A DNA stretch of 61,826 nt, filler included, from Jimgerdemannia flammicorona (taxonomy: Eukaryota): NCBI GenBank assembly GCA_003990765.1. It is 3 parts of 3 records of this genome, joined end to end, with 100 filler letters (N's around TTAATTAATTAA, not from the genome) between each part and the next. Parts side by side here need not be neighbours in the genome. Positions count along the whole stretch, not along the records: positions 41,289 to 61,826 come from RBNJ01001656.1; 2 more parts are not named here. One strand, written 5' to 3'. Each line of letters opens with the position of its first letter. Positions within the stretch are counted from its first letter, which is position 1. The translations under genes and the position numbers were made by a program. Shown in pieces: positions 17,801-58,600 of the stretch. The notes under the pieces were generated by a model. The model had not been told where the DNA came from. It ran no database searches and saw only the letters and a program-made list of their open reading frames with translations.

Positions 17801-20545
17801 TTGGGGTGGAGCTGGTAGAGAGACAGAGAGACAGAGGAGGAGGTGAGTACAGTGTGCTTCAAATAGGTTGAGGGGATTGTAGTTGGAGTGGACAGATTTG
17901 CTTATGTCTGATGAGGTGGAGGATTGGAGGTTAGAGAGGGCGAAATTGGAAGTAGTAGAACTGCAACAGGTGTTGAGAGAGGAGGAGGAGACTTATATGC
18001 GAGGAATGGCTGCCAGACTATAGTGGCAGGGGCTTGAGGAGGGGGAGCGGCCTACTAGGTACTTGTCTAGGCTCCTCAAAGCCAGGTGGGTGAGACATTG
18101 GTGGGATGGGGTCTTTGATGCTAAGGGAGAGTTGGTGCATGGTACACAGCAGATCCTGGGAGTATTGAAGGAGAATTGGCGGAGTCTGTGGAGTGAGGAA
18201 GAAGGGGGTACTGATGCAGAGGTGATTGGCAATACACTGGAGGAGTGAGAGCCACTGCAGGTAGAGGGACTGGGTGACCTGTTCTTACCAGTCTGGGAGG
18301 AGGAGATTCAAGGAGTCCTGGCAGTGACTAAGCTTGGGACAGTGCCTAGAGAGGATGGATTATCATGGGACTTCTGGAAGAAGATGGCAAAAGTCCCTAG
18401 AATGCTGAAAGAGATGGCTGCCCTCTGTGACTATGTTATTCTAAATGGCATGTGGGTTAGAGAGCAGGACTTAGGGCTGGAGCACTATTGTACAAAGACA
18501 AGGGCAGGCATGAGGATTGGAAGAATTGGAGACTGATCATGCTTCTGGATATGGATCGAAAGTTAGTGACTAAGGTGATTGTTGCGAGGCTACAGAAGGT
18601 TGCCCAACAGGTGCTGGGTGAGGAGCAGTGGGGCTTTGTAGGTGGTAGGCTTATCAGAGATAGAACTGCCTGGGTGTATGGCATTATTGAAAGAGCCCAG
18701 GCCTGCAGACTAGATGGTAGACATGTTTTTTTGGACTAGAAGAAGGCCTATGACTGTGTTCAGCAGGTTTGGCTAGGCAAGGTGCTGGACAGAATTGGTG
18801 TTCTGCCACAGTTTTGGGCCTCTATGTTAAGTTTGTTGGATGGGAGTAGAGTGGCACTATTGTGTAATGGTCACAGGGGTTTGGTGTTTCCCTTGGGAAG
18901 GGGAGTCCCTCAAGGGGACCTGCTGTCTCCTATCTTTTATGCACTCTCCTTGGAACCTTTGATGGATAGGATCCATAGGAGAGTGGCTGGGCTCTCTGTG
19001 TATGGTGTGGAGTGGAAGGTGGGGGCCTTTGCAGATGATATAGTAGTTGGACTTGGATCAGTAGCAGATGTAGAGGCTCTTTGGGAAATAGTGGAGTGGT
19101 ATGAGGCACACTCTGAAGCAAGGCTCAACTGGCATAAGTGTGAGACAATAGTGTTGGGGAATTGGCTAGTGGGAGGGGATGTCATTGGAACAATTGTCCC
19201 CACAGGAGAGGTGGTGTAGTATCTCAGTATCTTTCTCTCTGTATATGGATCAGTCCTGCTATGAGTGTGGTGGGAGAGGAGGGTGGACATTTGGGGGGAG
19301 GCTCTAAAAGGTTGGGGGTCATCATATTTCCCTGGCAGGGCAGGTGGTGATTCTGAATGTATACTGGTTTCTCAAGCTATAGTATGTGGCATATCACTTA
19401 GACTTTTCAGCTTGAATGGTGAAGAGGCTGATGAAACTGGCTAGGGATTGGATTTGGGCAGGTAAAAGGGCCCAGATCAGTTGGGATACCCTTGTCGAGC
19501 CAATGCTTAGGAGAGGCCTGGGCCTTGTTGATTTCCCTAAGCGATTACACTGCCTGCAAGCTTGGTGATTGAGAAGAGCTATTGAGCTACAGGATAGAGG
19601 TTGGGTAATGCTGATGCAGAAGGTGTGGGAGATGAGAGTCTCCCCCCGGGGGTCCTCAGGGGATCTACTCTCTTTGGTGGATCTGAATAGAAGCTGATGG
19701 CTACAGTATAAGGGCTTCTGGTGGGGAGTGGTCGATGGAGTACACCAGATAGGCCTGCACTGGCATGGCAATGAGAGGGAGGTAGAATGGGGTCCAGCTA
19801 TGTGGAGATGGGACCATCTACTTCTAGGAGGAGTTCCACTTGCTGAGTTTAATATTGGGGATGGAGTGGAGTGTCAGCAGCAAATTGGTCAGGATCTTTG
19901 ACTGAGTAGTTGGCAGGCAGTGAGGATTGGTGAGGAGTGGGACTGGGCAGGGATCTGGTCTTGGAGTACAGAGGTGCAGTGGTGGCTACCTCTCAAGTTC
20001 TGGGTAGTGTGGAGGAATATTATGTTGAATTTCTGTGCTGGGCATCTGGTGGATGGTGGTCGACTGGATTGTGAGGAGTATTATAATGTTGGGCAAGCTG
20101 GGGGATTTGTACAAATGCCAGAACATTGGCTGGGAGAATGTGAGGTGCTGGGGGATTTTTGGATAGCTATAGGGAACTGGCTAGGGGTTGGAAGGAGACC
20201 AGATAGAGAGAGAAGTCGCTGGGAAGATTTGGAATCTAGACTTATGGGAGGTGTCAGCAATGGGTGGCTTACTGTAGGGTGGGTTGTGGCAGTGTAGATG
20301 GGGTTGGCTGGACATTGGCTCTTTATTTTTGAGGAGGGGCAACAGATAGGGATATGGAAGAAGTTGTTGAGATGGGAGGAGTTGGTGGCGGATCTGCTGA
20401 CTGAGTGGAGGATTGGATGGAGACCCCAAGGTGGGCAATGTTGCCATCTGGTGGAAGGGATATGTGAACAGAGTGGTGGGCAGGTGGAGATGGTGTTTGG
20501 TAATTATGTGAGTGGAGTGGGCATACGGGTATATATGCAGTGCAG
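14900..20545 (+). mobile_element. Near full-length decayed L1/Tx1-like LINE: ORF1 ~14990-16900, ORF2 APE endonuclease + RT ~16920-20500; 3' end lost at contig edge
   Basis: APE motifs SLNVNGL, DLFLLQD, GDFN, TRIDWIL, WSDH. RT motifs NWRLIMLLDMDRKL, QWGFVGGR, FLD*KKAYD, GVPQGDLLSP, FADD. Many stops and frameshifts. Confidence 0.92.
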
Positions 20546-20645
20546 NNNNNNNNNNNNNNNNNNNNNNNNNNNNNNNNNNNNNNNNNNNNTTAATTAATTA
20601 ANNNNNNNNNNNNNNNNNNNNNNNNNNNNNNNNNNNNNNNNNNNN
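20546..20645. other. Artificial contig linker (N44-TTAATTAATTAA-N44)
   Basis: Exactly 100 nt with a six-frame stop cassette; identical to 41189-41288. Confidence 0.97.
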
Positions 20646-20715
20646 AAAAAAAAAAAAACCTTCATATCAAAAGAAGTTCCCAAATTCACATCACATTCCA
20701 TCCTCTCTCTCTTAG

Positions 20716-21806
20716 ACGCCCCTGCCATCAAGTCTGCAGATGTGGGTGTAGCCATGGGCCTGGCAGGCACGGAGATCACCAAGCAGGCAGCAGACCTCGT
20801 GTTGGCCAATGACGACTTCACGACAATTGTGGCAGCCGTGGAGGAGGGTAGACAGGTGTTCGACAACATCCTCAAATTCATTGTCTATCTGCTCAGCTGC
20901 AACGGTGCCGAGATCTTCCTCATGCTCATCTGCGCGTGCGCCGGCATCGAATTGCCCTTCACTACTATCATGATTTTGTGGGCGAATATCATTGGTACGT
21001 GTATTCGCTTTTGTGTGGGTGTAGATATTGTCGCGTTGCCGTTCCTACCCTCTGGTATGATTGTGTATCTGACCCAATGTATCTATACAAAAAAAAAAAA
21101 AAAACAATCAGCCGACATTCCCCCCGCCATGGCACTCGGGCTTGAGCCCGCGGAGAAGGATCTTATGAGGCGGAAGCCGCGCAACCCGAATGCCGGCGTG
21201 CTGACACGCGTCACGTGGACCATGGTCGGCCTGCAGTCTGGTCTCATGGCCCTCATGACCTTTGGCGTATACACCATTGCCCTCTACATCGAGAAGATCA
21301 ATGAGGCGGATTCGAGGTCGTTGGTGAGTCGGATGTGATATGTTGCTTTTTTTTTATTTTTATTTTTTTATTTTGTCACTAACGCAATCCACTAACCCCT
21401 TACAAATGATAATAAATAAACCACAGGCCTTCACGCTCCTCACCTCCCTTCAGCTCCTCCAAGGCTTCCTCTCCCGTACCATCAACGTGTCCGTCTTCCA
21501 GACCGGATTCTTTACCAACTTGTGGATGATCTTTGCCGTCGGAGTGTCTTTCCTCGCCATGCTCATTGGTGTCTACGTAACAGGTAAGATAGTCATTATT
21601 GTTTTCGTCCCACGGTCTATCGGCTCCTCAAATAACAGTAAAAGTCTCATGATGATTTCCCTTCTTTCAAAGGCATATCCGACTGGTTGACCCTCACGTG
21701 GGTCCCGTGGTTCGGTTGGTGCAAGATCGGCATATGCTGCGTCGTGCTGATTGTTTTCAGCGAAGGAGAGAAATGGGTTGTGAGGAAGAAGCACTGGGCG
21801 TTCTAG
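20716..21806 (+). CDS. P-type II cation-transporting ATPase (Ca2+ or Na+/K+ ENA-like), 3' four exons: 20716-20994, 21112-21323, 21427-21583, 21673-21806; 5' part missing
   Basis: DAPAIKSADVGVAMGLAGTEITKQAADLVLANDDFTTIVAAVEEGRQVFDNI, ILWANII|ADIPPAMALGLEP, FFTNLWMIFAV. Canonical GT-AG introns keep frame to ...KKHWAF*. Confidence 0.93.
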
Positions 21807-22741: not shown

Positions 22742-22860
22742 AAACTACAGCACCCAGTATTCCCATGTGGTCCCCCACCATAGTACTGACTGGGCCATCA
22801 CGGGCTTAACTTCGGAGATCGGACGGGATCCGGTGCATTGCCGTGTGTATGGCCGTAGCT
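22742..22860 (-). rRNA. 5S rRNA gene (dispersed copy)
   Basis: Reverse strand reads AGCTACGGCCATAC...GATCCCGTCCGATCTCCGAAGTTAAGC...AGTACTATGGTGGGGGACCACATGGGAATACTGGGTGCTGTAGTT, ~119 nt. Pairing ends and a downstream T-run Pol III terminator. Confidence 0.95.
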
Positions 22861-41188: not shown

Positions 41189-41288
41189 NNNNNNNNNNNN
41201 NNNNNNNNNNNNNNNNNNNNNNNNNNNNNNNNTTAATTAATTAANNNNNNNNNNNNNNNNNNNNNNNNNNNNNNNNNNNNNNNNNNNN
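41189..41288. other. Artificial contig linker
   Basis: N44-TTAATTAATTAA-N44. Confidence 0.97.
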
Positions 41289-42738: not shown

Positions 42739-43183
42739 GAGACGAGCGATGGGAGACGGGCGATGGGAGGGAGACGGGCGATGGGAGACGGGCGATGGAA
42801 GACGAGACGGGCGATCGGGGACGGGTGATGGAAGATGAGACGAGCGATGGGAGACGAGACGAGCGATGGGAGACGAGACGGGCGATGGGAGATGGGCGAT
42901 GGGAGACGAGCGATGGGAGACGGGCGATGGGAGACAGGCGATGGAAGACGGGCGATGGGAGACGGGCGTCTCATCTCCCATCGCCCGTTCGTCTCCCATC
43001 GCTCGTCTCATCTTCCATCGCTCGTCTCATCTCCCATCGCCCATCTCCCATCGCCCGTCTTCCATCGCCCGTCTCCCATCGCTCGTCTCGTCTCCCATCG
43101 CTCGTCTCGTCTCCCATCGCTCGTCTCGTCTTCCATCGCCCATCTCCCATCGCCTGTCTCCCATCGCCCGTCTCCCATCACCC
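42739..43183. repeat. Inverted (head-to-head) minisatellite of GAGACG(A/G)GCGATGG units
   Basis: Units run forward to ~42964 and as reverse complement from ~42967; centre GACGGGCGTC. Confidence 0.95.
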
Positions 43184-44609
43184 TTTTAGATGATCTTACT
43201 AAATTATTAAATTTATATTTTTTAGTTATAACAAAATGCCAAGACCATCTAAATGATCTCAGCACTTACAAAGTTTAAAATATCAAAAAAGTAAACTTGA
43301 AGAAGAGATTATAGGTAAATATTATTATATACAAATATTATTAATATTATTAATATATTAATTATAATTATAATTATAATTATAATATAGATGATGATGA
43401 TAAGAGAGAAGAAGAAGATGAAAGAGAAGAAGAAGATGAGAATGATGATGATGATGAAGATGAAGATGATGAGGATGAAGATGAAGATGAAGATATAGAT
43501 GAAGATGAGAATGCAGATGAAGATGAAGATGAAGATGAAGATAAAAAAGCTGACAGCAGTTGGGAACCTCATATTTTTGCACTCAAAGTTCATATGAAGA
43601 ATTTAGAGAATCTATCTCTAAATTCTATTTTAAAATATCACCATATATCATGACATATGGTATTTAGAAACAATAACAGGAGTACTTCTCAAGCTAGTCA
43701 TCTGATTGCAGAAAGTATCAACAAAGGCTTATATTATGCAAAGCTTTTGAGAAGATGGACACAAGATTGGATTGATAACAGAATTCTTCCTATTTCTCAG
43801 CAAGGAAGATATGCTAAGAAGAAAAGTCTTCTTAAAGATAAAAACATTAAACTTGCAGTAGAAACTTATTTAGAAAAAAATAAGTTTACTGCTACTCCAA
43901 AATCTCTTAAAGAACATTTAGAAGAAGAGATTTTTCAATATCAGCAGAATCTACAAAAATTCATGAAGATAAAGCAAGAAGATGGATGCTAAAGATGAGC
44001 TATACTTATAGTAGGCGCAGAAAAGGACTCTATGTTGATGATCATGAAAGAGATGATGTCAAAGTATCCTATGAACAATTTTTAAAGCAGATGGCTGACT
44101 GGAAACCATTTATGGTTCAATGTGATGAAAATTTTCAACCATTACAACACAACATTTCTCTTGGACAACAACATATTCTAGCTACCTATGATGAGGCTAC
44201 TTTCAAGGCAAATGATGATCTAAATTATAGATGGATAATTTCCTCTAAGAAAAAAAAGTAGAGGTGCTAGTATAATGGTTAGTGAATTTCTTCTGGATAC
44301 TGTTGGAAGACTGGCTATATCTGAAAGACAATATAAAGATATGAAGAGGCCAAAGCCTCCAAAAGAAGCTTGTTGTCTACTTGAAATTGGAAAAGCTAAG
44401 AAAGATTATTGGACTGGAAATGATCTAATAGATCAGGTATGTATATTTATAATAATAATTAAATTTAGTAAATAGATTAAATAAAAAATACTTATAATAT
44501 AAATTAATATTATATTTTTAGATTAAAAACAAAGCTATTCCAATTTTCAATGCTATTCATCCCAACTGTATAGCAGTATTTGCATTTGATCATAGTCAAG
44601 GACATTCAA

Positions 44610-46207
44610 TGTACATTGTAATGGTGATCTCAGAATGGTGACATCATCACAGGAGACAGCCTTTCCTTACAAGCCACCAGATCAGAGCACAAGAAGATTA
44701 TATAGCATGACTCATCCAGGCTACAAGATGAGCAATGATGACAAACCATGAGTTATGATGACTACAAGATAAACATCTCAAGAAATATAAAGGAAGGACC
44801 AAGAAACCACAGTAGCAGCAATTAAAACAAGACTCAAAATCCTGAAATAGTTCAAAAGACTCACTATAAACAAAATGCCTATCACTCACCAAACCTCAAG
44901 GTCCAGGAACCACCAAGGCCTCTCAGTTCAAGAAAGGATGTTCCAAGACATCAGGAGAGCCATAAGGACCTGCACCAGAAGGATTCCTAGCCTCAACCTG
45001 GGTATTGGTAACTCTTACCACTTTACCCTCTACCACCATGAAATGGAGACAAGGATTACTACTGCTACTGAATGCCTCTGGATGTGGCAGAAATACGAAA
45101 TAGAGAACCTCCTCTGCCAGGAATTCCCCCAGGCCAGTCCCCAAGAGATACAAGATGACACCTCTATAGATGCACATAAATTGAGGATAGCCAAAAAGAT
45201 CCATCAGGTCTTCAGACATGCACCTTGGTCAATCTCCAACTTAGAGTATACCAGAGTCTCAGACTTCAAGGAATTGTCAGCCTACTACATGGATGCACTA
45301 GAAGCTATGGTGGCCACAGAAGCCCAATCTACCATTACTCTCAAAAGTGATGAAGTAGAGGAGTTCTGGAATCCCATCCTCCAGGACAATTCAGATCAAT
45401 TTCTGCAAGGATTAATCTCAGTATTCTAAGGCCCCAGTATCCAGGTCAGACCCCCTCAAGATCCCACCTTTGTCCCCTACTTTGTGGAGGAAAACATCAT
45501 AGATTGGAGAGCCCCTGATCTGCTGCTGAATGTGATGACATCATCATTGATGACATCATCCTGCTAATCAACACATGTGAAATGAACAAAATGCTTGCAG
45601 AAATGCTTGCTGACCTTATTTCCTTCAAAGATATCCCATCCCTGACCTCTAGTCTTGATGATAGCAATGAAGACAAAGCCCTGAGAATTTTGAACATTTT
45701 ACTCTAATTTGTATGTATAACTATTTGTTTGAACACTTGAATATTTTAGCACTCTGACTTTGTGTAACTGTCAGAAATTATTCCAGAATTCTGATCTTAT
45801 ACAACCAATTGTATAGGTACTCAAATTTGTACTTACAACCTGAAGTTTTCTGTGTTCAAATATCTTATTTGGATATTGGATTTTATATTAGCTTTATATC
45901 TTAGCAACTATTGAATTACATTTTGTATAAATACCCCTCTCATTTCCTTTGAAATAAAGTATTAAAAACACTCAAGCATTCAAGTACCCAACTACTCAAG
46001 AGCACAAAAGTTCCAGTCCTCTACTCAATTCTACACAAGTAAATCCAAGAGATAACAGAACAGTTTAAAGATAAGAAGTTTGAGGACTATAAGATCTTGG
46101 GAAGGCACTCCAATAGAACTTGCTTATAAGAAACTTGTAGTTGGTCTAAAGATACACCTTGAAGAGAATCTGATGTACTTGGAGAACTCAGCGCCCACTA
46201 TATGACA
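44610..46207 (+). mobile_element. Solo-LTR-like insertion (~1.6 kb) inside the transposase
   Basis: Removing it rejoins transposase H-S-(M/I)-Y-A-S-D. TG...CA ends with imperfect terminal inversion; TGTATAAATA (~45925) then AATAAA (~45953), as in other LTRs here. Exact left boundary and TSD are ambiguous (ATGTA/ATATA). Confidence 0.65.
44875..45429 (+). CDS. Uninterrupted 184-aa ORF within the LTR-like insertion; similar to Gypsy ORF3
   Basis: ATG to TAA with no stops in otherwise decayed DNA; motif KYEIENLL...IAKKIHQVF...SDFKEL. Confidence 0.55.
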   Translation: MPITHQTSRSRNHQGLSVQERMFQDIRRAIRTCTRRIPSLNLGIGNSYHFTLYHHEMETRITTATECLWMWQKYEIENLLCQEFPQASPQEIQDDTSIDAHKLRIAKKIHQVFRHAPWSISNLEYTRVSDFKELSAYYMDALEAMVATEAQSTITLKSDEVEEFWNPILQDNSDQFLQGLISVF

Positions 46208-47487
46208 ATATATGCATCAGATGCTTTATTTGCTCACAAGATGAATCTTGGACCTGCTGGAAAACAACCACTTATGAGAACTAAAAAGTTTAACAATATC
46301 ACTCAAGAAATGATATTTTCATCATCATGTGATAATGTTAAACTGCGTGGTAAACCAAAGGGCTTAAAACAAGTACTTAAAGAAAGAAATCTTTGGAGAG
46401 AATATTTAAGAAGAAAATGCAAAGAAAAATGCAAGACAGAAGATTTTTGTGCAGTATATACGTGACTATTGACAGATAATAAAATTGATGACACCTAATT
46501 TATAATACAAATGAAATACAACCCTCTTGGCATTACCCAGAAGCCACCACGAGGAGGTGGGGTTGTGTTGGCTTCCACATACCTTATAATGCTCCTCCTT
46601 GAAATCACCACCATCTTGCGACTCCTCTCCTCTTTTTCTTGCTGCATCAATATGGCCATTCCTTGTGGATGGTATTCTAATTGTAACATTATCACTGTTG
46701 CATCCATCACTCGTCCTCTTGAACTCATCCAGCCCAGAGGGCATTGTGACAGATGGAGGTGACACTGTTCACTTGACTCCATGCTCGCACTTCACCTTCG
46801 TGGGTGGGACTCAGCAGGAGGGACACAGCGAATCATCCTCGGGATGACAATGTCAGGTTGGGCACCCCAAACTGGACCTGAGAGGAGGGGAGTTCCTGGA
46901 AATACTGAAGAAAGATTGCACTTTGAATTAATAGCCAAGATGGTCTATACCTTCGTGGGTGCAAGAGGCATCCTGCTTGAACTACATGCTTTAAATCACT
47001 GTCATAGAGGGGCATGGCAAGGTTGAGATGCAGATAATGAGCGTTTGTGATAAATCTTGATGACAAGGATAACTAGAGGGTGGGTGTACCTGTGTCCTCA
47101 CCCTCCTTGGACTCGTACATTTCTCCACTAGAAGCAGGAACTCGACCTGGTTGTCAGCAATGGAATTTGTATACTGCAATGGAGAATGAACTATCAGAAA
47201 TGTGAAAATCACTGAGAAGGGTTTCAAATATAATTTCAATTTATCTTCAAACAAGAAATGGATGGAAATAATAACGATATCGCAATTTGATGAAACCAAT
47301 ATTCAAGATGAAAGCTGTGGCAAATAAAGAACTTTTGACCAAGGGTTATAGGTTGTCAATGGAAAAGAGCAAAAGCAATACAAAGTACAAATAAAAGCAT
47401 AAGCAAAATTATAAAAGCTAGAAGAGTTGCTCTCTCTCTGAAACTTCCAAAGTGCACAGGATAATTAACATAATTAGTGCACCGGAC

Positions 47488-47660
47488 AGCAGATCAGTTT
47501 AATGTCATGAGGCCAGGACTAATTTAAACACCCTGCATAGGATGGCAGATCCGTTTAATGTCATGAGGCCGGGACAGTTGGGTGCAGATCCGTTTAATGT
47601 CATGAGGCCGGGACAGTTGGGTGCAGATCCATTTAATGTCATGAGGCCAAGACAGTTGGG
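47488..47660. repeat. 39-bp tandem repeat GCAGATCCGTTTAATGTCATGAGGCCGGGACAGTTGGGT (3 copies plus one upstream partial)
   Basis: Direct copies at ~47545, 47584 and 47623; related copy at ~47488. Confidence 0.92.
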
Positions 47661-48159
47661 AGAGAGCAGTATCATCAATGAGTGCTATATGTATGATGAA
47701 GATATTTTATTTGCCAATGGCAAAACATTATGCATATTTGATTTCGCTATTGGAGTATTTGTAAGCACACATTAGATTCCCATTATTGGTATATATATCA
47801 AAATGACACCAGCTGACTTCAGTATTATGCATCATACTGTATCAAATAGCCAAATTATATATTTCATAAAGCAATCTCCGGTTTACTGAATTTTGGTTAG
47901 CTTGAAATTGCTGTCCTCAATGAGATCATGTATTTGAAATTTTTGCTTTGTATAATGACTAATCTCTCTGCAGCTTGGCAGCAATAGTGAATTCGAGCTC
48001 TGTAATATTATGTACCAGATATTTCTTCACATAATTACAGAGCTACATTTTGTCAAATATATATAACATCTGAAGGAATAATGCTAGCCAGACCACTTCC
48101 ATGCATTTCCTATTACGAATCATTGTAAAATCTTTATTGAAGACGAATGACTGCATCGT

Positions 48160-49435
48160 GATTTTGCAAAAAGTAGCATGCCGAATTGTCGGACCATTGG
48201 GTCACCTGTGACATCATCCCCAATGGCAAAATTAAATGATGCACTCTAGATACACACTTTAGTGTCCCTTTAGCTCAACAGTAACCACATAGCCCTTGAG
48301 GTAGAGGTTTGAACCTTCATAAAGATTCCCAGTGTGGCTGAACTCTAGTAGTAGGTAGTTACATCGCTCAAGAAGACTGTCCTTCAAGTAGTAGGCAGCT
48401 ACGTCATTCGAGAAGAAATGAAGCCTCATATTGATGATCCGACAGTTCGGTATGCTACTTTTCATAAGCAACACAGGGTTCTTGGAAAAGCCAGGTTGAT
48501 TGCATACGTGACTCGTCTGGGGATTTCTGCTGGATGCCCTGTTGTTCGCAAAAAGTAGCATACCGAATTGTCGGACTGTTGGGTCATCCGTGACATCGTA
48601 CCCAATGGCAAAATTAAACAATTCCATTTGATGCACGCGCTTTTACGCGATTTAGATACACACTTTGGCGCATCCTTTTTCTCAACAGTAACCACCATAG
48701 CCTTCTAAAACGAAATTTGAACTTTCATAAAGATTCCCAGTCTGGCTATTCTTTAGATGAACTCTAGTAGTAGGTAGTTACATTGCTCAGGGAAAAAAGC
48801 TTATAGCTGTCCTTCAGATAGTAGGTAGCTGCATCACTCAATCATGTTGATGACCCAACAGTACGGTATGCTACTTTTCTTGAGCAACACAGGGTTCTTG
48901 GAAAAAGCCAGGTTGACTTCATATGTGGCTCATCCGGAGATTTTTGCTGGATGCCCTGTTGTTCGCAAAAAGTAGCATACCAAATTGTCGGGTCATTGAG
49001 TCACCCGTGACATTGTATATACCCAATGGCGAAATTAAACAATTCCATTCGATGCACGCGCTTTTATGCGATTTAGATACACGCTTTGGCACGTCCCTTT
49101 TCTTAACAGTAACTACCATAGCCTTCTAAAACGAGATTTGAACTTTCGTAAAGATTCCCAGTGCGGCTGTCCTTCAGGTAGTAGGTAGCTGCGTCAATCA
49201 AGAAGAAATGGAAGCCTCATATTGATGACCCAACAGTTCGGTATGCTACTTTTTGTGAGCAACACAGGGTTCTTGGAAAAGCCAGATTGATTGCATATGT
49301 GACTCATCTGGGGATTTCTGCTGAATATTCCGTTGTTCGCAAAAAGTAGCATACCGAACTGTTGGGCCAATGCTGCGGCTTTTGCTCAACAGTAACCACA
49401 TAGCCTTAAAATTCGGTGTGCTACTTTTTGTGAGC
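48160..49435. repeat. Tandem array of ~375-420-bp units with alternately oriented 25-bp motifs
   Basis: CAAAAAGTAGCATACCGAATTGTCGG at 48167, 48549, 48966 and 49340; reverse complement at 48439, 48855, 49230 and 49411. Confidence 0.9.
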
Positions 49436-50392
49436 ATTTAGTCAGCTCAAAATCACTTTATGAGATGAGTTGAATTTACTGTAGTCATACAAGGTATAGT
49501 AGAATAATACATTTACTACTATTTGAATTTACTACTTCTTTATCATTTGTATCCCACATTGACCACATATATATGTTTCTCTCTCCATTGTGTCAGCTCT
49601 GTAAATTGTGATGTATATATATGATTAGTACAAGATCTAAATATAGTTCATAAATATTAATCAACCAAGTGTTATTACCTCAGGTGGTCTCTGACTGGCA
49701 TCATACGCATTTGTCAGATATTATAAGATAGTAGGAGTATCAAGATCTAAGCTCCATCCTCCCCATTCACATATCTCACCTATTGATTTATGCTGTCCTG
49801 CATAGTAATGCCAGTACTGACACCCTCTACATCGAAATGAATGTGTATCATACAGATCTGACTTTACAATTCCAATCGCCTGTAGATCCTTTCAGAATTG
49901 ATTTTGGAAGGATTTGTAGCTTACTCTCTGAGCTACATCAAGATCCTGGTTATCATTTCTAGTGACAAAGAAATATCCATCTGTCTCACCATGGTAGTAT
50001 AACCATCTCATATATGGCAAAGATACTTATTGTAATTATTGCGCCATAATATAAAGGACTGGATCCCTGTGGAATAATAGATGAATTAGAAGCATCGCAG
50101 TTACATTTGCTTTACAAACATCTTGAGAGATGACCTACCTCCACCCTGTGCTGTTTTACGAAAGTTCAATATTAATGTGACATATCTCTTCCGAAATTCA
50201 ATATGTGTCCATTGAATATTCAATACTTCATCACCATGTAGAAGGCACAGATATGCAAACAGGTATGCATACTGTAAAATGTATGTTAGTTAAACATGGG
50301 TATATATTGCATAAAGCAAATACGAGCTGACAAGTATATATATACATATTGATGAGCACCAATAACTCCCTCTTGCTGACAGTATGTGTACA

Positions 50393-51488
50393 TTTTTTTT
50401 TTTTTTTGGAAGGGAAACTAGACTATATAGGCCAAAACCCTCCCCCACCCCCACCCTGAACACTACACCCCCATTAACTTAGGCTTGCTATTGTCCAGCA
50501 GCTCTACTATGCCAGGTGCAGCAGGGCTTATATTAGCCTGCACCTCATTCTGCACACCATGCTCTCCTTACCACCAAGGGGAAAACAACCATATACTAAT
50601 GACTGAAGGTGCATACTTGAATCCCCAACATATGTACAAGGCCATGCCAGAGCCAGATAGCAAAGCCCCCACCACCCCAAAGAGAGTGACAGGCAAAAAA
50701 AGACCCCTCCAAAAGATACAGAATGATAGATAGGACCTGGTTCTCTCTGATGGAGTGAGTGAAGAACTTATATGTAAGGTGGGAGGAGACCCCCAGTACC
50801 CTGCTACTCAAGTCTGTGGGCCTCAATCATATCACTATGTCAGCTTCTGGTTCTAGTTGAGTGCAGCCTAAACACCTGACCCTGGTAGCCTCAGGCCCCC
50901 CAACAACTCCTAACAACTGGAGCCTAACTAGTGCTCCCAAACAAATCGAATCAATTCGAATCAAATTGAATTGAGGGTCATTCAGATCGAATCAAATTGG
51001 GGATTTTTCAATTTGAATCAAATTCAAATTGAATTGAATTCAAATTGAATTGAGGGTCCAATTCAACCCCTATTTTTCAAAATGTAATAACGTGACGAAT
51101 ACACATCCAAATTCAATGATCTTTAGCTTGTTAGATTTCCCTATATAAGGGAAATCTAACAAGCTAAAGATCATTGAAATTGGAGGTATATTCGTCAAGT
51201 TATTACATTTTGAAAAATAGGGTTCAAATCAGACCTCAAATCGAATTAGCCTTTGATTCAATTCAAATCAAATCGAATTGGACCTTTGATTTGATTCGTT
51301 GGGAGCACTAAGCCTAACCTCACTGATCACCAAGAGCCACCAAGAATGACACTTACCACCTAACCACCCTGCACCAATCAGAAGGCCCCACCAATGTAGC
51401 ACTTGCAACAACCCTAATAACCATCACCAGCCTGATATCTGACTGGTCTACTGTAATTGCCCTTCTGTCTATCTGTGACAGCCATCAC
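50393..51488 (-). mobile_element. 5'-truncated LINE 3' end (second family), inserted in the YR gene
   Basis: Poly-T then GGAAGGGAAACTAGACTATATAGGCCAAAACCCTCCCCC, the reverse complement of the 3' end at ~60705-60750. Also shares GATGGCTGTCACAGATAG with ~60080. Confidence 0.75.
50929..51310. mobile_element. Palindromic hAT-type MITE (382 bp)
   Basis: TIRs TAGTGCTCCCAA / TTGGGAGCACTA; exact 8-bp TSD AGCCTAAC (50921-50928, 51311-51318); central hairpin CTTGTTAGATTTCCCT-ATATA-AGGGAAATCTAACAAG. Confidence 0.95.
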
Positions 51489-52058
51489 ATATGGACTTTG
51501 CTGCCTTACCATGCCATGCCTTACATCATTGCAAGTGCATATATATCTTCATACATCCTCTGATTGAGTTGGATTTTCAACCAATTTTGCTTTTTCTCAT
51601 CATATTCAAATATTGCCATTGATGTTATAATATTGAGTAATAGCTGATTGTATTGTCAATGTAGTTGAGATCTATATTGTGTATGTAAATAACAATATAT
51701 GATTATTACTAAATATTGAAATACAAAATTATATATATAAATTACATTTACCAAATATCCCAGACATCTAATAGAATTACCATGCTCATCCATTGTACAT
51801 ATCTCTAGGTTCACACTGTTTGTATATATATGTACAGATATCATTTGGTATCATTTCTATAATATTTGTGGAATCAAATTCTTTGTTATAGAGATGTTTA
51901 TATTATTGGCATTGAAATCGGTAATATTCATTTTATGTACTTAGTGCTCTAAATGGATTCAATTTATTTAGATGAGATTCAATTCAGATTCATCATGTGA
52001 TGGATTCAAATTAATTCAGATTGGTCTTATGATCAATTCAGATCAGTCAAATCTTTGG

Positions 52059-55000
52059 TGATATCATCCTTTTTGGTGACATCCTCCTTTTTGTATTTTT
52101 TTTTTTTTTTTCACCAGTCAATGCTCAATCCACTATAAATAAATAAATAGCACCTCTTAACCATATATTGGTTTACTCATTTTATCTAACCAATGATCAT
52201 CTAACTAATGATCATTAAAAAGAGAGAACATTTGAGACAAAAAAGTACTTTCTCCTTTTTTATGAGCACTAGGCCCCTTTATTAACTAATCTATAATAAA
52301 TACATGGTCCTTATACCTCACCAGTAGCCCTAATCCAACTCCACTCTACCCTACCCCAACACACTCCCTTCCCCCCACCCTTTCTCTCTTAAAAACTACC
52401 AGATCATTAACCACCCCAATCTACCCATCACTCCTCTCATATATCACTTCCACCAGATGCTGACAATGACCTCCCTGAGGCCCCCACCCCCTCCACCAGT
52501 CCAACAGGATGTCCACCATTAACCTCTCCCACCTTACTAACCTCTCTACCATAACTATCCATTTCCCATCCTTGAATACATATATATAGCCAGTGCCTAG
52601 CCAACCCCACCCATACTACTAATGCTCACCCAACAGCAAGTCACTCATTATCTATATACTCTACCAACTGCTCTCTCAAGCCATCCCATCTTTCCCCCTC
52701 CTCATCATCCTGCTGTTGCACCTCCAGGTAACCCCCAACCATTGCTCAGAAGTCACCAAGTACTCCACACTCACTTAGTCAATGTTTAGGTATCTGTGTA
52801 AACCTCCCCTCCTGCCCCAATTATAATACTCCTTGCACTCGAAACTGTGTCCTAACCTAAAGTTCAACATGATATTCCTCCTCAAGACACACCATCACAC
52901 CATCCAGAACTTCAGAGGAAGCCACTGCCATACCTTAGCACTCCAAGACCAGACTCCAGCCCAGTCCCATGCCTCACCAATGCCTGCTGACTGCCTGCCC
53001 AATGGCCATAGATCCTGTCCCACTCCTCATTGACACTTCATGCCAATTCCAATGTCAAAGTCCACTAGCAGTGAACCATCCAACAGAAGTCTGTCCCAAT
53101 GCCATATTGCAGATCCCCATTGCACCTCCCCCTTATTACCATGCCAACATAGACCAATGCAGAGAGCACTCTCCACCACCCCCCACCAGAATTCCCTATA
53201 CTGCAAGCACTGACTACTCTCCAGTCCAACCATTGACAATAAATCTCCTGGGGAACCTCTAGGGGAGAACCTTATCTCCCAGACCCTCTGCATCAATGGT
53301 ACCCACCCTCTACTCTGTAACTCAATAGCCCTCCTCAACCACCAAGCCCTAAGGCAATGCAACCTCTTTGGGAAGTCCACCAGACCCAGACCACCCCTGT
53401 CCACTAGAGTCACCAACACCTTTCAACAGAAAAGCACTTTCTGCTGACAATGTTAAATTCTTTCTCATATGAACAGTACACAAACTACTTATTGAGAGTC
53501 AAGGTGGCAATAATGATGAGGGAGAATTCTAGCAATAATTTACAGAGACCCTGCAGACCTCAGAATTTATAGACCTTACAGCTATGTATGCAGCAGCCTT
53601 TGTAGAGCAGCTAGTAGTAGATATAGGTTGCATAGTATCTTTTCACCATTACAATTAATTAAATTCCACAGTATGATCCAATTCACATCACACTGTTTTC
53701 TTTCTTAGGGTCCACAACTCTACAGTGAGATCTGCTGACTTTAGTTGCAATATCTGGTCAAGATGAAGAAAGGCTGGAGGATGTTGCAAGACATGCCTTT
53801 GGTGGCTGAGCTGTTGAGTCAATATATTATATAGCAGAGGTCTCAAAAGGAGCAGAAGCAAGCCTTCATGAACACCTCATCCGCATGCAACTCCATCTGT
53901 TTCTATCCTATTCTCATCCTATTCTCATCCTATTCTCATCCTCATTCTGATTCTATCTCCCCCTTTTTCTATTTATTAAAAAAAAAAAAACCTTACACAT
54001 AATCTGTCCATATATACAACTCGACCCACTGGCTCAGATCAAGGCTCAGTTCCACTACAAAAGAGAAAAATGACCCAAGTTCAGCAATATCTGGCATCTG
54101 ATGAATTAGAGAAGTTTGAGGGCAAGCTATTCAGCATGAGCAATACCAACATTGCTATCAGGGCTTGGGGATCAACATTCAATTTGAACCCAACTGTTCT
54201 TGACCAGAGGGTCCATTTGACTGCAGGAGTATTCAACAATGACAAGAACCACATCATCATTAATGATCACAGAGAGGTGGTTACAATAGTGGTGAAGAAT
54301 CTCTATAGTAATGAGCTTCACTACTATATCAATGAGGTTTATAAGGATTGTGTCAAATACCAGGTGGCAGGGAAGAGAGGGTGTAAAAAGCAAGAAGGGG
54401 GAGTTTGGACAGGAATTGGGTATATGACAACATTGGCAAAGGGTGGGTTCCTTGGGGTTTTTCTGAAATTCTCTGCATTCAACTCAAAAATCTCGAATGC
54501 AGAAAATTTCGGAAAAACCCTGAGAAACCCACCCTTTGCCAATGTTGTCATATATTCAATTCTTGTCCAAACTCCCTCTTCTTGTTTTTATGCCCTCTCT
54601 TTCCTGCTATCTAGTATTTGACACAATCCTCACAAACCTCATTAATATAGCAGTGAAGCTCATCACCATAGAGATTCCTCACCACTATCATAACCACCTC
54701 TCTGTGATCATTAATGATGATATAGTTCTTGTCATCATTGAATACTCCTGCAGTCAAATAGACCCTCTGGTTGAGAACAGTTGGGTTCAAATTGAATGTT
54801 GATCCCCAAGCCCTGATAGTAATGCTGGTATTGCTTATACTGAATAACTTGCCCTCAAACTTCTCTAATTCATCAGATGCCAGATGTGGCTGAACTTGAA
54901 TCACTTTGAATTCTCTTCTGCAGTGGAACTGAGCCTTGATCTAAACCAGTGGGTCAAGTTGCATATGTAAATAGATTATGTGTGAGGTTTTTTTTTTAAT

Positions 55001-55622
55001 AAATAGAAAAAGAGGGGGATAGAATCAGAGTGAGGATGAGAATAGGATGAGAATAAGATGAGAATAGAATAAAAACAGATGGAGTTGCATGTGGATGAGG
55101 TGCTCATGAAGGCTTGCTTCTGCTCCTTTTGAGACCTCCACTACACAATACATTGACTCAACAGCTCAGCCACCAAAGGTATGACTTGCAATGTTCTCCA
55201 GCCTTTCTTCATCTTGACCAGATATTGCAAATGAAGTTGGCAGATCTCACTGTAGAGTTGTGAACCCTAAGAAAGAAAACAGTATGATGTTAATTGGATC
55301 ATATTGTGGAATTTAATTAATTGTAATAGTGAAAAGGCACTGCACAACCTACATCTACTGCTGGCTGCTCTACAAAAGCTGCCACATATATAGCTGTGAG
55401 GTCTATAAATTCTGAGGTCTGCAGGGTCTCTGTAAATTGTTGCTAGAATTCTCTCTCATCATTGCTACCTTGGTTCTTGATAAGTAGCTTGTGTGCTGTC
55501 CATATGAGAAAGAATTTAACATTATCAGCAGAAAGTGCTTTTCTACCTCAAATGTTCCCTCTTTTGACAATCATTGAAAAAAAAACACAAAAAGGAGGAT
55601 GTCACCAAAAAGGATGATGTCA
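52059..55622. mobile_element. Foldback element: ~45-bp TIRs enclosing a 2.1-kb near-perfect palindrome (53428-55544); left side interrupted by a LINE fragment
   Basis: TGATATCATCCTTTTTGGTGACATCCTCCTTTTTGT at 52059 is inverted at ~55585-55622. Inner arms are reverse-complementary around a centre at ~54486. Confidence 0.85.
52270..53420 (-). mobile_element. 3' fragment of the 14900-20545 LINE family
   Basis: RGGLGLVDFPKRLHCLRAWWLRRAIELQ (ORF 53027-53419) matches the translation at ~19510-19600; extends into a putative 3' UTR. Confidence 0.88.
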
Positions 55623-55629
55623 ATCATCA

Positions 55630-58600
55630 AGATCTCCAGTCCAGTCTATATCATATATACCAGATAACCTTATAATACTCCTGCTTGATCTATTATCATT
55701 ACTTAAGCATAGTGTATAGTATGCTGTATCTTTGATGTATCTGAAGATATACTTAATTGTCATCTAATATAAATTGTTATAACAGGATGAATACTGTACT
55801 ACTTTGTTGACTGCATACAATATATTAGGCCTCATCTTGAGTATAAGATATATGAGAGATCTTACAGCTTGTTAATAGAAAATATCATTATCTTCAGGTG
55901 TAATATTGGACTTCTTTAGCCTCACAGATATCTCCATAGATATTTCAACAGATTTACATTTACTCATTCTGAATTATTTGGGTATAGTCTAAATATATGT
56001 GGCTTATGATAGATATACAGCATGCTCACATCTATCATATGATTAATATTTCAAGAAGATGGGATGTATTACCCATATCTGTCATCTTGAATTCCTGATA
56101 TAGTATTATCTTTATAATATTAATTTTACTTGCCATTCTGACCAGAATGATATCATTAATCCAAATTTCAAGATATATCATTCCTGAGGATATATATCAG
56201 GTATATATATAGATTGCCTCACAATGCTTAAATCCATTGCTTAAAAGATACTTATTGATTTTTTGATTTCACAGCCTTATTACTTATTTGATATTATAAA
56301 GACCTTTATATAATTTATATATAAGCTCTTTTTACTCATTATTGTATAGTTCATATTCTTGCAGTTGATAGATATATAGCTCTATATCTACATTACTATT
56401 CAAGAAGACTGTCTTAACATCTATTTGATGAATTTCATAATTATATTTGGCTCCAATTATAAGAAGTATTCTAAGTAAAGTAAGCTTAAATATCAGGAAA
56501 AAAGTCTTATCATAATCTATACCATATTCTTGTGAATACCTCTTTGCTAAAAATCAGGTCTTGTACTGCTCTATGTTATTATTGCTATTATACTTAATTT
56601 TATATATCTATTGAGATTCTATTGCTTATCAATTTGTCAGAAGAGAGACTAGATTCCAAGGGTTATTTTTGATGAGTAAATCATATTCCTCATCTATAGC
56701 CTTTTTCCATTCTTTTTTATTATCTGAATATATAGCTTCATTGTAGTTTACTGGTTCATCAGTCATTATAATGTAAGTATACTTATAAGTATAGTTTATG
56801 ATATTTATTATGATAAAATTCCTTAGGTTGATCTCAATAACCTCCAAAATCTGCTTTGATCTCATTGTATAGCCTAGACTCATATCTTTTCTTACCTTTC
56901 AGAGAGGTATCCTCATTATTATCCTCATTCATAATTTCCATAATTCTTGGCTCTGATAATCTCATTGATATGGATATAGGTTGTACTAATACTAGCATAG
57001 GCATCATTTCACTCATCTTTGAAGTTAGTATAGTTATTACTAACTGTACTATTAGGTTGGTTGAGATAGAAACTTCTACATAAATTTTCTGCTTAATTTC
57101 CTTGAATTGAATGTTATGCAAGATAATGATATGATGTTTCTGTGGATTCCACAATCTATATACCACTCTATCATATCTAAGGAATATATGCTTATCTGCT
57201 TTAGGCTCAAATTTGCCTCTATTGTTACCCTTATTCAAGATATAAGCCTTGCTTCTGAATATCTATAGGTGTGAAATATCTGGCTTAGATTCACTCTATA
57301 ATTCTTTAGGGATAAGATTACTATCATTTCTAGATTATTGATTATTATTATTGGATTTGCCAGATCTGCTAGAGTCTTTACTTAAAGCTTAAGAAATATA
57401 ATGATTTTAGATATATACTGCTATATTCACCACTTCAGCCCAGAAGAGGTATGGTAAGCTATCTGTATTTATCATCATTTGAGCCATCTCTACTACTGTT
57501 TAATTAAAGTACTCCACCACACTATTCTGCTCAGATATATAGAGGGCTATTATAGAGTATTGAATACCATACTTCTTCAAGAAGTATCTGAAGGCTTTGT
57601 TGATATATTTCTTATCATTATCTAAGTATAGAATTTATATCTTACATCTTGTTTCATTCTCCACAGTTGCCTTGAATTCTCAAAATTTCTCAAATATCTC
57701 ATTCTTCACTATAAGGAAGTATATATAGGCTTTGTAAGTATAATCATCAATAAAGGTGATAAAATACTTCTTTTTGGAGTATATTGCCATTTATATGGGG
57801 CCACAGATATCTATATATATTATGTCAAGAATACTGGTCACTCACTTCATACATTTCTGAAAAGGTTACCAGGAAGTCTTATTTGCCATACATCTGTCAT
57901 AAAAGCTGAGATTCAATAGTATATAGTTTAGTAATCTATATATAGATTTACTCCTTATTATCAATTTCAAGCTCATCTTGCCAATATGTTCTAAGCATTT
58001 ATGCCATATACCAGAGATCCTCTCTAGTCATAGCAGAATATACAGATAATAACTACTTGGTATATTATTAATTGCATATAGGTTCTCCTTTTTTGATATA
58101 TATATTAACTTCTTATTATTCTTTAGATTAATTACTATTATACTGTTTGGTTATATATTTACTCTTTTATCTCCTCAAGTCATTATCCAGCTAATTGAAA
58201 AGAGATTTTTGCTGATGTCTGAAGTATATAGTATATCTAAAAAGATGTCTGAGAGTTCATCAACTTTTCTATATAGATGTATACTGACATTTCCCTTGCC
58301 TTGAGTGTAAATAATGTTATTGTCATCTAGTTTGATAGATACAAGATGCTTGAACTTCTCATATATAGAGAACCACTTACAGTAAGCTGTTATATGCTAT
58401 ATCATACTGGAATATATAAGCCAAACTTCTTTGCTATATATATAAGCACTTGGTATATATATAGCTTACATTTATACTAGCACTGACATCAATATTTTCT
58501 ATTTCTATAACTTCTTCTACAAGTAGATAGGTCACTGCTTCTGTAAAAAACAGATCTTTATTATTTCTATCACTTTCATTATTACTATTATTGTTGATGT

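Follow-up and report, generated by a model that had tools for sequence, protein, structure and literature searches.

Does an array of alternately oriented motifs that lies directly beside a decayed tyrosine recombinase (YR) gene in Jimgerdemannia flammicorona belong to the same mobile element as the gene, or is it an unrelated neighbour? The locus is part of the stretch of DNA analysed here (61,826 nucleotides, hereafter the window). Among the DNA transposons of eukaryotes, to our knowledge, no class is understood as poorly as Cryptons: their ends are hard to define, and in textbooks they are described as lacking terminal repeats. The DNA recognised by a Crypton recombinase is known, in the available part of PMC9977147, only as the target of about 5 bp of one algal element, CryptonF-1_cRei, which was seen to be active in Chlamydomonas. 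If motif arrays of the kind described below are recombinase-binding regions, assays of binding and recombination would gain specific candidate cis-sites, and genome annotation would gain a practical means to delimit Crypton elements. The copy in the window is dead; thus, its own value is that of a pointer, and the copies that merit testing are intact relatives, for example those of the L016 type.

The recombinase gene and its family

The minus-strand gene at 49532-51977 is a dead tyrosine recombinase that is Cre-like and of a Crypton-type family. Its parts, and the gap between it and the array, are as follows:

49532-51977, minus strand: tyrosine recombinase pseudogene, whole detectable extent
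49437-49531, no strand assigned: AT-rich gap of 95 nt from the array end to the recombinase stop codon
49532-49600, minus strand: last exon, ...ETYICGQCGIQMIKK and then TAG TAA, with the C-terminal CxxCG
49601-49677, minus strand: putative GT-AG intron, 77 nt (sequence reading and alignment to relatives)
49678-50065, minus strand: catalytic exon with HSFR, WGGWS and the Tyr codon
50066-50136, minus strand: putative GT-AG intron, 71 nt (same basis)
50137-50289, minus strand: box I exon with CLLHGDE and the lysine of RKT (50157-50155)
50929-51310, no strand assigned: nested hAT-like MITE inside the recombinase gene, a foldback with TIR TAGTGCTCCCAA...
51801-51977, minus strand: N-terminal domain, decayed to a remnant (59 aa at 30.5% in tblastx with L005, E 5e-6)

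The initial annotation had described a pseudogene with the layout R..K..HxxR..W..Y and a C-terminal CxxC. The order of residues and the C-terminal CxxCG are indeed present, the latter matching the CxxCG(R)... tail of relatives, but the first arginine is not: the catalytic Arg of box I has become His (50238-50236), with Lys, HxxR, W and Tyr retained. In the alignment, relatives keep all of the R-K-H-R-W/H-Y catalytic residues. The catalytic exon (H of HSFR at 49843-49841, R at 49834-49832, Tyr codon at 49720-49718) carries a 1-nt deletion near 50031, a TGA at 49894-49892 and a TAA at 49723-49721, directly 5' of the catalytic Tyr codon. Thus, the layout notwithstanding, the Arg-to-His replacement, the frameshift and the two in-frame stops establish that the recombinase is dead. 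The view that the gene is spliced is borne out by at least two putative introns (50136-50066 and 49677-49601 in the direction of the gene), which were placed by reading the sequence and its alignment to relatives. The N-terminal remnant is also supported by a match to P0078 (E 0.008). The MITE nested within the gene is bracketed by an 8-bp target duplication, AGCCTAAC (50921-50928 and 51311-51318), and has a related copy at 4936-5197.

The recombinase family was found by exhaustive HMMER search. The usable fragment of the window copy is about 120 aa. A family profile built from the window fragment and 23 relatives matches Cre residues 106-327 (E 5.6e-12), and Pfam Phage_integrase is matched by 7 of the 24 family members (best E 2.5e-6). 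The window fragment alone (P0001) matches nothing in Pfam, even at E up to 10, single recombinase exons match no meaningful Pfam family, and a word-index search with a 56-aa catalytic piece against longer proteins returned nothing. In the Atlas, a full-length relative has Crypton-related families as its neighbours, namely the clusters of NDC10_II, DUF3504 and ALOG/integrase. Reverse transcriptase (RT), RNase H and methyltransferase are absent from all 50 flanking ORFs of relatives that were searched, the matches of which are assorted non-transposon domains; these ORFs were taken from the 66 longest of 466 (90 aa or longer, in loci of 3.5 kb or more), with 16 of the 66 skipped as near-duplicates of the same cluster or as overlapping an ORF already chosen. 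The proposed kinship with Cryptons is upheld by the Cre match and the RT-free flanks, and on its coding content the family is Crypton in the broad sense, that is, a recombinase unaccompanied by RT, RNase H or methyltransferase. Assignment to a named subgroup fails, since neither GCR1_C (CryptonF; E up to 1) nor DUF3504 (CryptonA/Glomhopper) is found in the 24 family members. Two other classes are ruled out: Starship captains, as DUF3435 occurs in 0 of the 24 members and the relatives' elements are small (apparently less than about 5 kb), and DIRS/Ngaro, as no RT adjoins the gene in the window or in relatives.

The initial annotation had further suggested that 39-bp repeats and gene remnants at 46.5-48.1 kb form one larger element with the recombinase. 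This suggestion was not sustained: at the coding level, positions 44000-48160 resemble the flank of no relative, and no meaningful Pfam family is matched by the ORFs at 46.2-47.8 kb; thus, there is no evidence for a larger element reaching 46.5 kb. Across 44000-48160 and 50290-56000, nothing besides the YR is common to relatives. The window at large is a transposon graveyard, with the hAT-like MITE in the gene, remnants of LINE, Ty3 and Copia type and further repeat arrays. The LINE RT at 18.7 kb belongs to another element, as do the closest remnants of LTR retroelements, a dUTPase at about 37 kb and a retroviral SH3-like domain at about 57 kb.

Anatomy of the adjoining array

The array is on the 3' side of the gene, of which the first stop codon is at 49534-49532. 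Its extent and distance, first given as about 1.3 kb and about 100 bp, were measured as 1274 bp and 95 nt. Its features are as follows:

48163-49436, no strand assigned: tandem array of 3.3 units, 1274 bp (self-BLAST and sequence reading)
48163-48544: array unit 1, 382 bp
48545-48961: array unit 2, 417 bp
48962-49335: array unit 3, 374 bp
49336-49436: array unit 4, internally deleted, 101 bp
48167-48192, plus strand: motif copy 1, 1 mismatch
48439-48464, minus strand: motif copy 2, 3 mismatches
48549-48574, plus strand: motif copy 3, 0 mismatches
48855-48880, minus strand: motif copy 4, 5 mismatches
48966-48991, plus strand: motif copy 5, 1 mismatch
49230-49255, minus strand: motif copy 6, 2 mismatches
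49340-49365, plus strand: motif copy 7, 2 mismatches
49405-49430, minus strand: motif copy 8, 4 mismatches, in an arm lacking its outer part
48434-48584, no strand assigned: example of a hairpin-capable module (minus arm, loop of about 66 nt, plus arm)

A mismatch-tolerant search of the whole 61.8-kb window (up to 8 mismatches) recovered eight copies of the 26-nt motif, the number that had been reported, in strictly alternating plus and minus orientation (48167-49430) and all inside 48163-49436, with no further copy outside the array. The eight matches at this threshold compare with 0-3 per shuffle (20 shuffles), and six matches at up to 3 mismatches compare with 0 in 100 shuffles. The 13-nt core GTAGCATACCGAA occurs eight times in the window at up to 1 mismatch, every time within the array.

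While the alternation stands, the eight sites are not independently placed, as a unit of about 400 bp that holds one inverted pair was duplicated in tandem. Strict alternation is thus a structural by-product of this duplication. The anatomy is established. Each unit has one inverted pair with arms of about 40 nt (about 36-45 nt), which exceed the quoted motif. Over 29-42 nt the arms are 74-96% complementary, and in this they have the TIRs of a MITE or TIR transposon; every arm contains a small symmetric core, CCGA-N4-TCGG. With a plus arm at its start and a minus arm at its end, the array divides into four long segments, between which lie three conserved spacers of about 77 nt. Identity between units is 73-75% with gaps (blastn), or 76-92% when substitutions are counted. 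By region, conservation is 76-92% for the arms, 79-84% for the inner part and 83-88% for the spacer; the arms are thus conserved no better than the remainder, and there is no sign of selection on the array 'sites'. From the gene lesions and the unit divergence, gene and array are both old.

The array and those of the relatives were mapped by self-BLAST and k-mer counts. Tandem Repeats Finder does not report the window array, the units of which are too diverged, and it also misses most of the relatives' arrays. Folded as single-stranded DNA, the module at 48434-48584 reaches -36.5 kcal/mol, compared to -16.9 +/- 2.7 for shuffles (z = -7.2). No conserved ORF is present in the units, and Rfam and tRNA scans returned nothing in the array/recombinase region. 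The motif has 0 matches in public metagenome contigs; a single match in a bacterial Lutibacter genome (L001; full 26-mer, 3 mismatches) was rejected as chance, with a rough expectation of about 0.1 hit for such a pattern in a database of that size.

Motif arrays beside related recombinase genes

Related recombinases are encoded by 80 soil-metagenome loci (285,079 bp), none of which has the 26-nt motif of the window. The recurrence of motif arrays of other sequence beside these genes is established: in many relatives, lineage-specific palindromes or inverted-pair arrays adjoin the gene, some from 7-50 nt past the stop codon. L016 has an intact C-terminal exon (stop at 3396-3398), followed from 3449 by 90-bp tandem units with inverted pairs of about 29-nt arms, six arms in strict alternation. 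In the closest relatives with context (L003, L004 and L006; 43-44% identity), five alternating copies of a 22-nt motif are found about 2 kb upstream, and the 11-nt core of this motif recurs as an inverted pair 0.5 kb downstream. The 13-bp palindrome TCGRWWNWWYCGA occurs 133 times in the 285,079 bp, compared to 0-3 times in shuffles, and is present in 27 of the 80 loci. It is found on both flanks, in both orientations and also in introns just 3' of the splice donor; of 12 loci examined, 8 have their first palindrome 7-41 nt past the stop codon. Far flanks devoid of the palindrome are mostly from loci that do not have it anywhere. A TCGGT/ACCGA half-site common to the window arm and the relatives' palindromes (also in L010) was rejected as a mark of homology, since 5-6 nt is too short.

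A generic repeat statistic, which asks for a 12-mer present 4 or more times with no more than 1 mismatch, is positive in the 2 kb downstream for 14 of 52 loci (11 of 44 sequence clusters) and upstream for 15 of 33 (14 of 26 clusters), with 2 of 59 in gene bodies and 0 under a Markov null, but it is not clearly above real genomic background, as 2 of only 11 far-flank control windows are positive. Within the window, 9 of 30 tiles (2 kb) have a motif of at least 4 copies. L065/L068 and L074/L077, with YR genes that differ by 8-12%, keep a homologous downstream array. From lineage to lineage the motifs beside the recombinase genes differ, as expected if a recombinase and its sites co-evolve. Certain relatives have short 3' ends without an array, as in L035 and L073, between which homology stops about 80 bp past the gene, and in L005, where a host dUTPase gene begins about 480 bp past the recombinase gene.

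Ownership of the array and comparison with known systems

Since related recombinase genes often carry similar motif arrays, the array is taken here, with about even confidence, as the probable subterminal binding-site region of the element itself, an old and dead Crypton-type transposon. The locus would be one copy of a DNA transposon in which the tyrosine recombinase is the sole enzyme and in which a module of about 400 bp, with inverted arms of about 40 nt, was multiplied in tandem, possibly by unequal crossing-over between arms or by the recombinase itself. In a live element, each of the many arms may have been a site bound by the recombinase, through either the DNA-binding domain at its N-terminus or the Cys motif at its C-terminus, and the arms would thereby mark the element and help to assemble the synaptic complex for circle excision and re-integration. 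Counted for this ownership are the 95-nt distance 3' of the stop codon, the same design in relatives (L016 in particular), the positive repeat statistic in the relatives' flanks, the homologous arrays kept across 8-12% YR divergence, the lineage specificity of the motifs and the shared old age of gene and array. Counted against it are the absence of the motif from the 5' side of the gene and from the 80 related loci, the single available copy of the element, the repeat-rich neighbourhood, the positive far-flank control windows of relatives, the palindrome-free far flanks that come mostly from loci without the palindrome, arms no better conserved than the rest, inverted arms at both array ends, as in a TIR element that stands alone, and the short, array-free 3' ends of some relatives.

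A serious rival, though a less probable one, is that the array is an unrelated neighbour: a TIR-bounded, MITE- or foldback-like element that sits beside a dying gene and expanded without the recombinase. By the route envisaged, an insertion beside the gene, either single or as two copies about 77 bp apart, would have been followed by ordinary unequal crossing-over, which generated the order element-spacer-element-spacer. Four arm-bounded segments, three spacers and arms at both ends are what unequal exchange between two direct copies gives, and in the last unit an internal deletion has spared both arms, as is usual in MITEs. The even conservation of arms and remaining unit, the graveyard setting, and the lack of the motif in all 80 related loci and on the gene's other flank agree with such an origin. 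However, neither the ends of the array nor those of single units show a readable target-site duplication, the arm is not known to begin like any TIR signature, and no other copy of the arm is found in the 61.8 kb. In addition, an array end less than 100 nt from the stop codon would have a chance of about a few percent if arrays were scattered at random (a rough estimate from the approximately nine repeat-bearing tiles), and relatives repeatedly have arrays in the same position.

A role of the recombinase in building the array by serial integration, through insertion of small circular, hairpin-bearing modules (about 300-400 bp) at an attachment site 3' of the gene, is very unlikely. Such an array would be a eukaryotic counterpart of integrons or tandem integration, and the palindrome arrays of relatives would be the long-sought cis-sites of Crypton transposition, a prospect that is equally improbable; by analogy, the outcome would resemble tandem prophage or plasmid integration or an integron cassette array, a likeness in which little confidence is placed. 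The recombinase gene does adjoin head-to-tail units, the imperfect inverted repeat of each unit folds strongly as single-stranded DNA, the outer units (U1 and U4) have common variants that are absent from the inner units (U2 and U3), and Cryptons are thought to move as circles via short target recombination, according to the available parts of PMC9977147 and PMC3212892. By contrast, the number of units is not whole and one spacer is missing, a poor fit to a single fixed crossover point; a canonical core site, in which binding elements lie on either side of 6-8 bp, is not apparent; and the units lack a conserved ORF, the 127-aa frame across a unit having no Pfam family and no relatives in a word-index protein search. 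Most improbable is a regulatory or silencing feature, in which read-through hairpins feed small-RNA silencing or the palindromes are transcription-factor or terminator sites: the array's place in the 3' flank, hence inside any read-through transcript, the strong fold of the module, and the relatives' palindromes at a fixed short distance past the stop and in introns after the splice donor would suit it, but palindromes on both flanks and in both orientations, a length of 13 bp that is too short for silencing hairpins, and the lineage specificity of the motifs, which it leaves unexplained, do not.

With the array read as the element's own binding-site region, comparison with Cryptons comes first. 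The Crypton transposition model reportedly goes back to Goodwin et al. in 2003. The window family is like Cryptons in that a YR with an N-terminal DNA-binding part is the only enzyme, introns are short, no RT is nearby and the element is small. It differs from CryptonF and CryptonA in the lack of GCR1_C and DUF3504 and in ending with a CxxCG(RxCxC) motif. The window array has inverted pairs, whereas published Cryptons, in the available parts of PMC3212892 and PMC13465315, have no TIRs or long repeats and have terminal direct repeats of 4-6 bp. The main texts of the literature, as far as available, yielded no description of palindrome or inverted-pair arrays beside Crypton genes. Glomhoppers, the DUF3504-encoding CryptonA elements of Glomeromycota, are likewise YR-only elements of fungi; as presented in the available part of PMC13465315, they are often intron-containing or truncated and occupy compartments rich in repeats, where kinase repeats and nested transposons adjoin them, with boundaries and repeats that could not be defined. 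The window protein and the 24 family members, by contrast, have no DUF3504 match and form a separate YR lineage.

Among systems with repeated inverted units, MITE-derived tandem repeats and foldback elements consist of TIR-bounded units arranged head to tail. The window array shares with them the TIR-bounded units, a conserved spacer and an internal-deletion derivative that keeps both arms, but it differs in having no readable target-site duplication, no dispersed copies in the window and a fixed 3' position as in relatives. Integrons combine intI with an attC cassette array, and the yeast 2-micron plasmid combines Flp and the inverted repeats of FRT with the STB tandem array. As in these, a tyrosine recombinase gene adjoins tandem units with an imperfect, hairpin-capable inverted repeat; the host, however, is eukaryotic, no attI-like or FRT-like site (6-8 bp spacer) is apparent, and an integron-like cassette array is rejected, as the units are geneless and their count is not whole.

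Many short motif copies near element ends are typical of the arm-type sites of lambda-type integrases and of the subterminal repeats of hAT, CACTA and Mutator elements. The putative sites of the window differ in having arms of about 40 nt, in being set within 400-bp tandem units and in lying on one side of the gene only. The likeness, which is one of analogy, would be in the design: motif copies in both orientations, clustered by the recombinase gene and specific to the lineage.

Tandem units and inverted arms

The structure is a tandemly duplicated module with an inverted repeat, adjoining the dead, spliced gene of a Crypton-type tyrosine recombinase (YR).

48163..49436, array of four tandem units with one inverted pair of arms apiece, the fourth internally deleted
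49532..51977, minus strand, YR pseudogene

As the initial annotation had reported, the array extends over 1.3 kb and holds eight motif copies in strictly alternating orientation. At ≤8 mismatches the 26-nt motif has eight matches in the window, all within 48167-49430 (shuffled sequence, 0-3), with 1, 3, 0, 5, 1, 2, 2 and 4 mismatches in the order +,-,+,-,+,-,+,-; at ≤3 mismatches there are six matches vs none in 100 shuffles. All eight occurrences of the 13-nt core in the 61,826 bases fall inside the array. The units form a direct tandem repeat with start-to-start distances of 382, 417 and 374 bp, and the fourth is cut down to 101 bp, with the two arms and 27 nt of the interior retained. Each unit holds one inverted pair, and the strict alternation thus results from duplication of such units. 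The arms exceed the motif, with lengths of 29-42 nt and 74-96% complementarity, and by eye reach up to ~45 nt at the internal junctions. As single-stranded DNA, a - arm, a loop of ~66 nt and the next + arm are predicted to form a strong hairpin, the module folding at -36.5 kcal/mol vs -16.9 ± 2.7 for shuffles (z = -7.2).

The units are evidently old. Identity between them is 73-75% with gaps (blastn), and Tandem Repeats Finder misses the array because the units are too diverged. Substitution identity is 76-92% in the arms, 79-84% in the inner part and 83-88% in the spacer; all indels fall in the inner part. The array opens with a + arm and closes with a - arm, so that its four long segments are separated by just three spacers. 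These properties bear on the main rival explanation, considered serious though less likely, in which the array is a MITE-derived neighbour of the gene by chance: the arms show no extra substitution conservation relative to the inner part or spacer, inverted arms bound the array as in a self-contained element, simple unequal exchange involving two direct copies would yield four segments with three spacers, and the array flanks just one side of the gene.

The recombinase pseudogene and its family

The annotation of a spliced YR pseudogene is upheld by the reading frames, the lesions and two putative GT-AG introns (71 and 77 nt, read by eye) that are consistent with the alignment to relatives.

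Minus-strand reading of the pseudogene, stretches in order
Stretch 1: ...AYLCLLHGDEVL...FRKTAQGGG
Stretch 2: IQSFILWRNNYNKYLC
Stretch 3: PYMRWLYYHGETDGYFF...
Stretch 4: THSFRCRGCQYW...CEWGGWS...TIL-stop-YL...
Stretch 5: ...ETYICGQCGIQMIKK, then two stops

Lesions of the pseudogene
Box I Arg changed to His
Near 50031, one base missing in the LCP codons
49894-49892, TGA
49723-49721, TAA immediately before the catalytic Tyr
Foreign repeats of ~1.2 kb, among them a 382-bp hAT-like MITE, separating the N-terminal from the catalytic part

Judged from its sequence, this copy is dead. The gene tail, ICGQCGIQMIKK-stop, resembles that of a sub-family of relatives ending CxxCGxK(I/V)-stop; thus, the stop at 49534-49532 is probably the original one, and the near end of the array lies 95 nt downstream of it. 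An exhaustive search of 1.84 billion representative proteins with the main catalytic stretch (P0001, stops as X) yields 107 relatives at E ≤1e-3, including 14 at E ≤1e-10, the best at E 1.7e-21 and 37% identity. In tblastn, all 107 together match only 49667-50289, plus one weak match at 51887-51801, and the N-terminal remnant at 51977-51801 is confirmed by tblastx against related loci (E 5e-6).

Full-length relatives of ~450-490 aa share LCLLRxDE, RKTxQ, GTHSFRRGGCQY, WGGWS, TIVRYL and a C-terminal CxxCGRxCxC. The C-termini are of two kinds: CxxCGRxCxC-stop (L020, L028, L030 and L039 of the soil-metagenome loci L002-L081) and the shorter CxxCGxK(I/V)-stop (L021, L047, L010, L029 and L068), to which the window tail also belongs. 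A 24-member profile matches Cre recombinase over the entire catalytic domain (E 5.6e-12); 7 of the 24 members match Pfam Phage_integrase, and none matches DUF3504, GCR1_C, DUF3435 or NDC10_II. ESM Atlas neighbours of a full-length relative fall in clusters labelled NDC10_II (Mucoromycota), DUF3504 and ALOG/integrase, which is taken as a lead only. Neither the window nor 50 of the relatives' longest flanking ORFs place a reverse transcriptase (RT), RNase H or methyltransferase beside the gene, and DIRS and Ngaro are therefore excluded; the lack of DUF3435 and the small size of the relatives' elements show that it is not a Starship. With DUF3504 and GCR1_C both absent, it cannot be assigned to CryptonA/Glomhopper or CryptonF as defined in the portions of PMC13465315 and PMC3212892 cited here. 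As a YR-only DNA element, it qualifies as a Crypton in no more than the broad sense. Its proposed extension into a larger mobile element that includes the 39-bp repeats finds no support: 44.0-48.16 kb is without coding similarity to the relatives' flanks, and its ORFs match no Pfam family.

Other features of the window
4936-5197 (~4.9-5.2 kb), copy related to the 382-bp MITE, 76-78% identity
14-20.5 kb, LINE-like remnant, GC-rich with strong GC skew; endonuclease 17001-17846, RT 18740-19219
20646-21338, C-terminal fragment of a P-type ATPase, next to the LINE-like remnant in the window, across the filler at 20546-20645
20546-20645 and 41189-41288, filler between the parts, each with a pair of 44-base N runs
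22742-22860, minus strand, complete 5S rRNA gene (Rfam 106 bits, E 2.4e-22), solitary among transposon remnants
42739-43183, large inverted minisatellite: 14-nt GAGACGGGCGATGG (~17 copies), then its reverse complement (~11 copies)
47489-47661, 39-nt tandem repeat, four copies, 500 bp past the array, showing no link to the array or the YR gene
50921-51318, 382-bp foldback MITE nested in the YR pseudogene, TIR TAGTGCTCCCAA..., perfect 8-bp target duplication AGCCTAAC, presumably of the hAT superfamily given the duplication length
51940-51963, fragment of the MITE TIR at the 5' edge of the YR pseudogene

Arrays and palindromes at related loci

A family-profile scan of JGI metagenome contigs gives 265 confirmed relatives, of which the best 80 (57 clusters at 85% nucleotide identity) were kept. 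Among these best 80 of 265, the 13-bp palindrome TCGRWWNWWYCGA has 133 copies in 285,079 bp vs 0-3 in ten shuffles and is present at 27 loci. It occupies both flanks and the gene span, with all copies <3 kb from the gene, and the far flanks without it are mostly from loci that lack it anywhere. The first copy lies 7-41 nt past the stop codon in 8 of 12 loci examined. Copies within the recombinase genes (L065/L068, L071, L025, L039, L047) follow, at a distance of a few bases, a GTATG-type sequence read by eye as a putative splice donor, which raises the question of whether introns and sites are connected.

At L016 the C-terminal exon is intact (stop 3396-3398) and is followed from 3449 by units of 90 bp in tandem, every one containing an inverted pair of ~29-nt arms, giving six arms in strict alternation: the design and position are those of the window, on a smaller scale. 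L003, L004 and L006, the nearest relatives whose context is usable, have CGTGTCTTTGG(AATTGCTAATC) five times in alternating orientation ~2 kb upstream of the gene, and an inverted pair of its 11-nt core 0.5 kb downstream. Palindromes or inverted pairs of their own, in tandem units, are found in L026, L042, L051, L021, L025 and the L065/L068/L074/L077 group, which keeps a homologous downstream array despite 8-12% gene difference. Motif arrays or palindromes near the gene, including that of L016 at the equivalent position, speak against a chance neighbour. Arrayless relatives speak against the array as part of the element: L005 has a dUTPase ORF within ~480 bp after the gene, and homology stops ~80 bp past the gene in L035/L073 and ~500 bp past it in L017/L049. 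The last two are 99-100% identical, and a 59-bp deletion (L017 3695-3753) strips the C-terminal Cys motif in L049. A link between array and YR gene is held to be probable but unproven, at about an even chance.

The window motif is absent from the best 80 of 265 related loci, as expected at protein identities of only 31-50%, and has no match in the metagenome collection. The prokaryote genome collection has one match to a degenerate 24-nt form (10001-10024 of L001, a Lutibacter genome contig), probably by chance.

Loci at which some 12-mer, on either strand and with ≤1 mismatch, has at least four copies inside 2 kb
Downstream of gene: 14/52 loci, 11/44 clusters
Upstream of gene: 15/33 loci, 14/26 clusters
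Gene bodies: 2/59 loci
Markov-chain controls: 0

Far-flank controls (2-kb windows >3 kb from the gene in a few long contigs) reach at least four copies in 2 of 11 cases, and study-window tiles in 9 of 30; thus, this generic statistic does not clearly exceed what repeat-rich fungal DNA shows as background.

Relation to known Cryptons

A literature search of article main texts found no account of arrays of palindromes or inverted pairs next to the recombinase genes of Cryptons. The pattern across relatives is the more interesting outcome, and suggests that one Crypton-like clade carries lineage-specific arrays of palindromic sites that begin directly after the stop codon. Should this hold up against a proper genomic background, it would add a new structural variant to a known class of transposons and supply candidate cis-sites for experiments. 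Cryptons, in the portions of PMC3212892, PMC13465315 and PMC3627910 cited here, have no TIRs or long repeats and use terminal direct repeats of 4-6 bp as recombination substrates; the single active family observed, as described in the cited portion of PMC9977147, has the ends CACCG and the target CAYCG.
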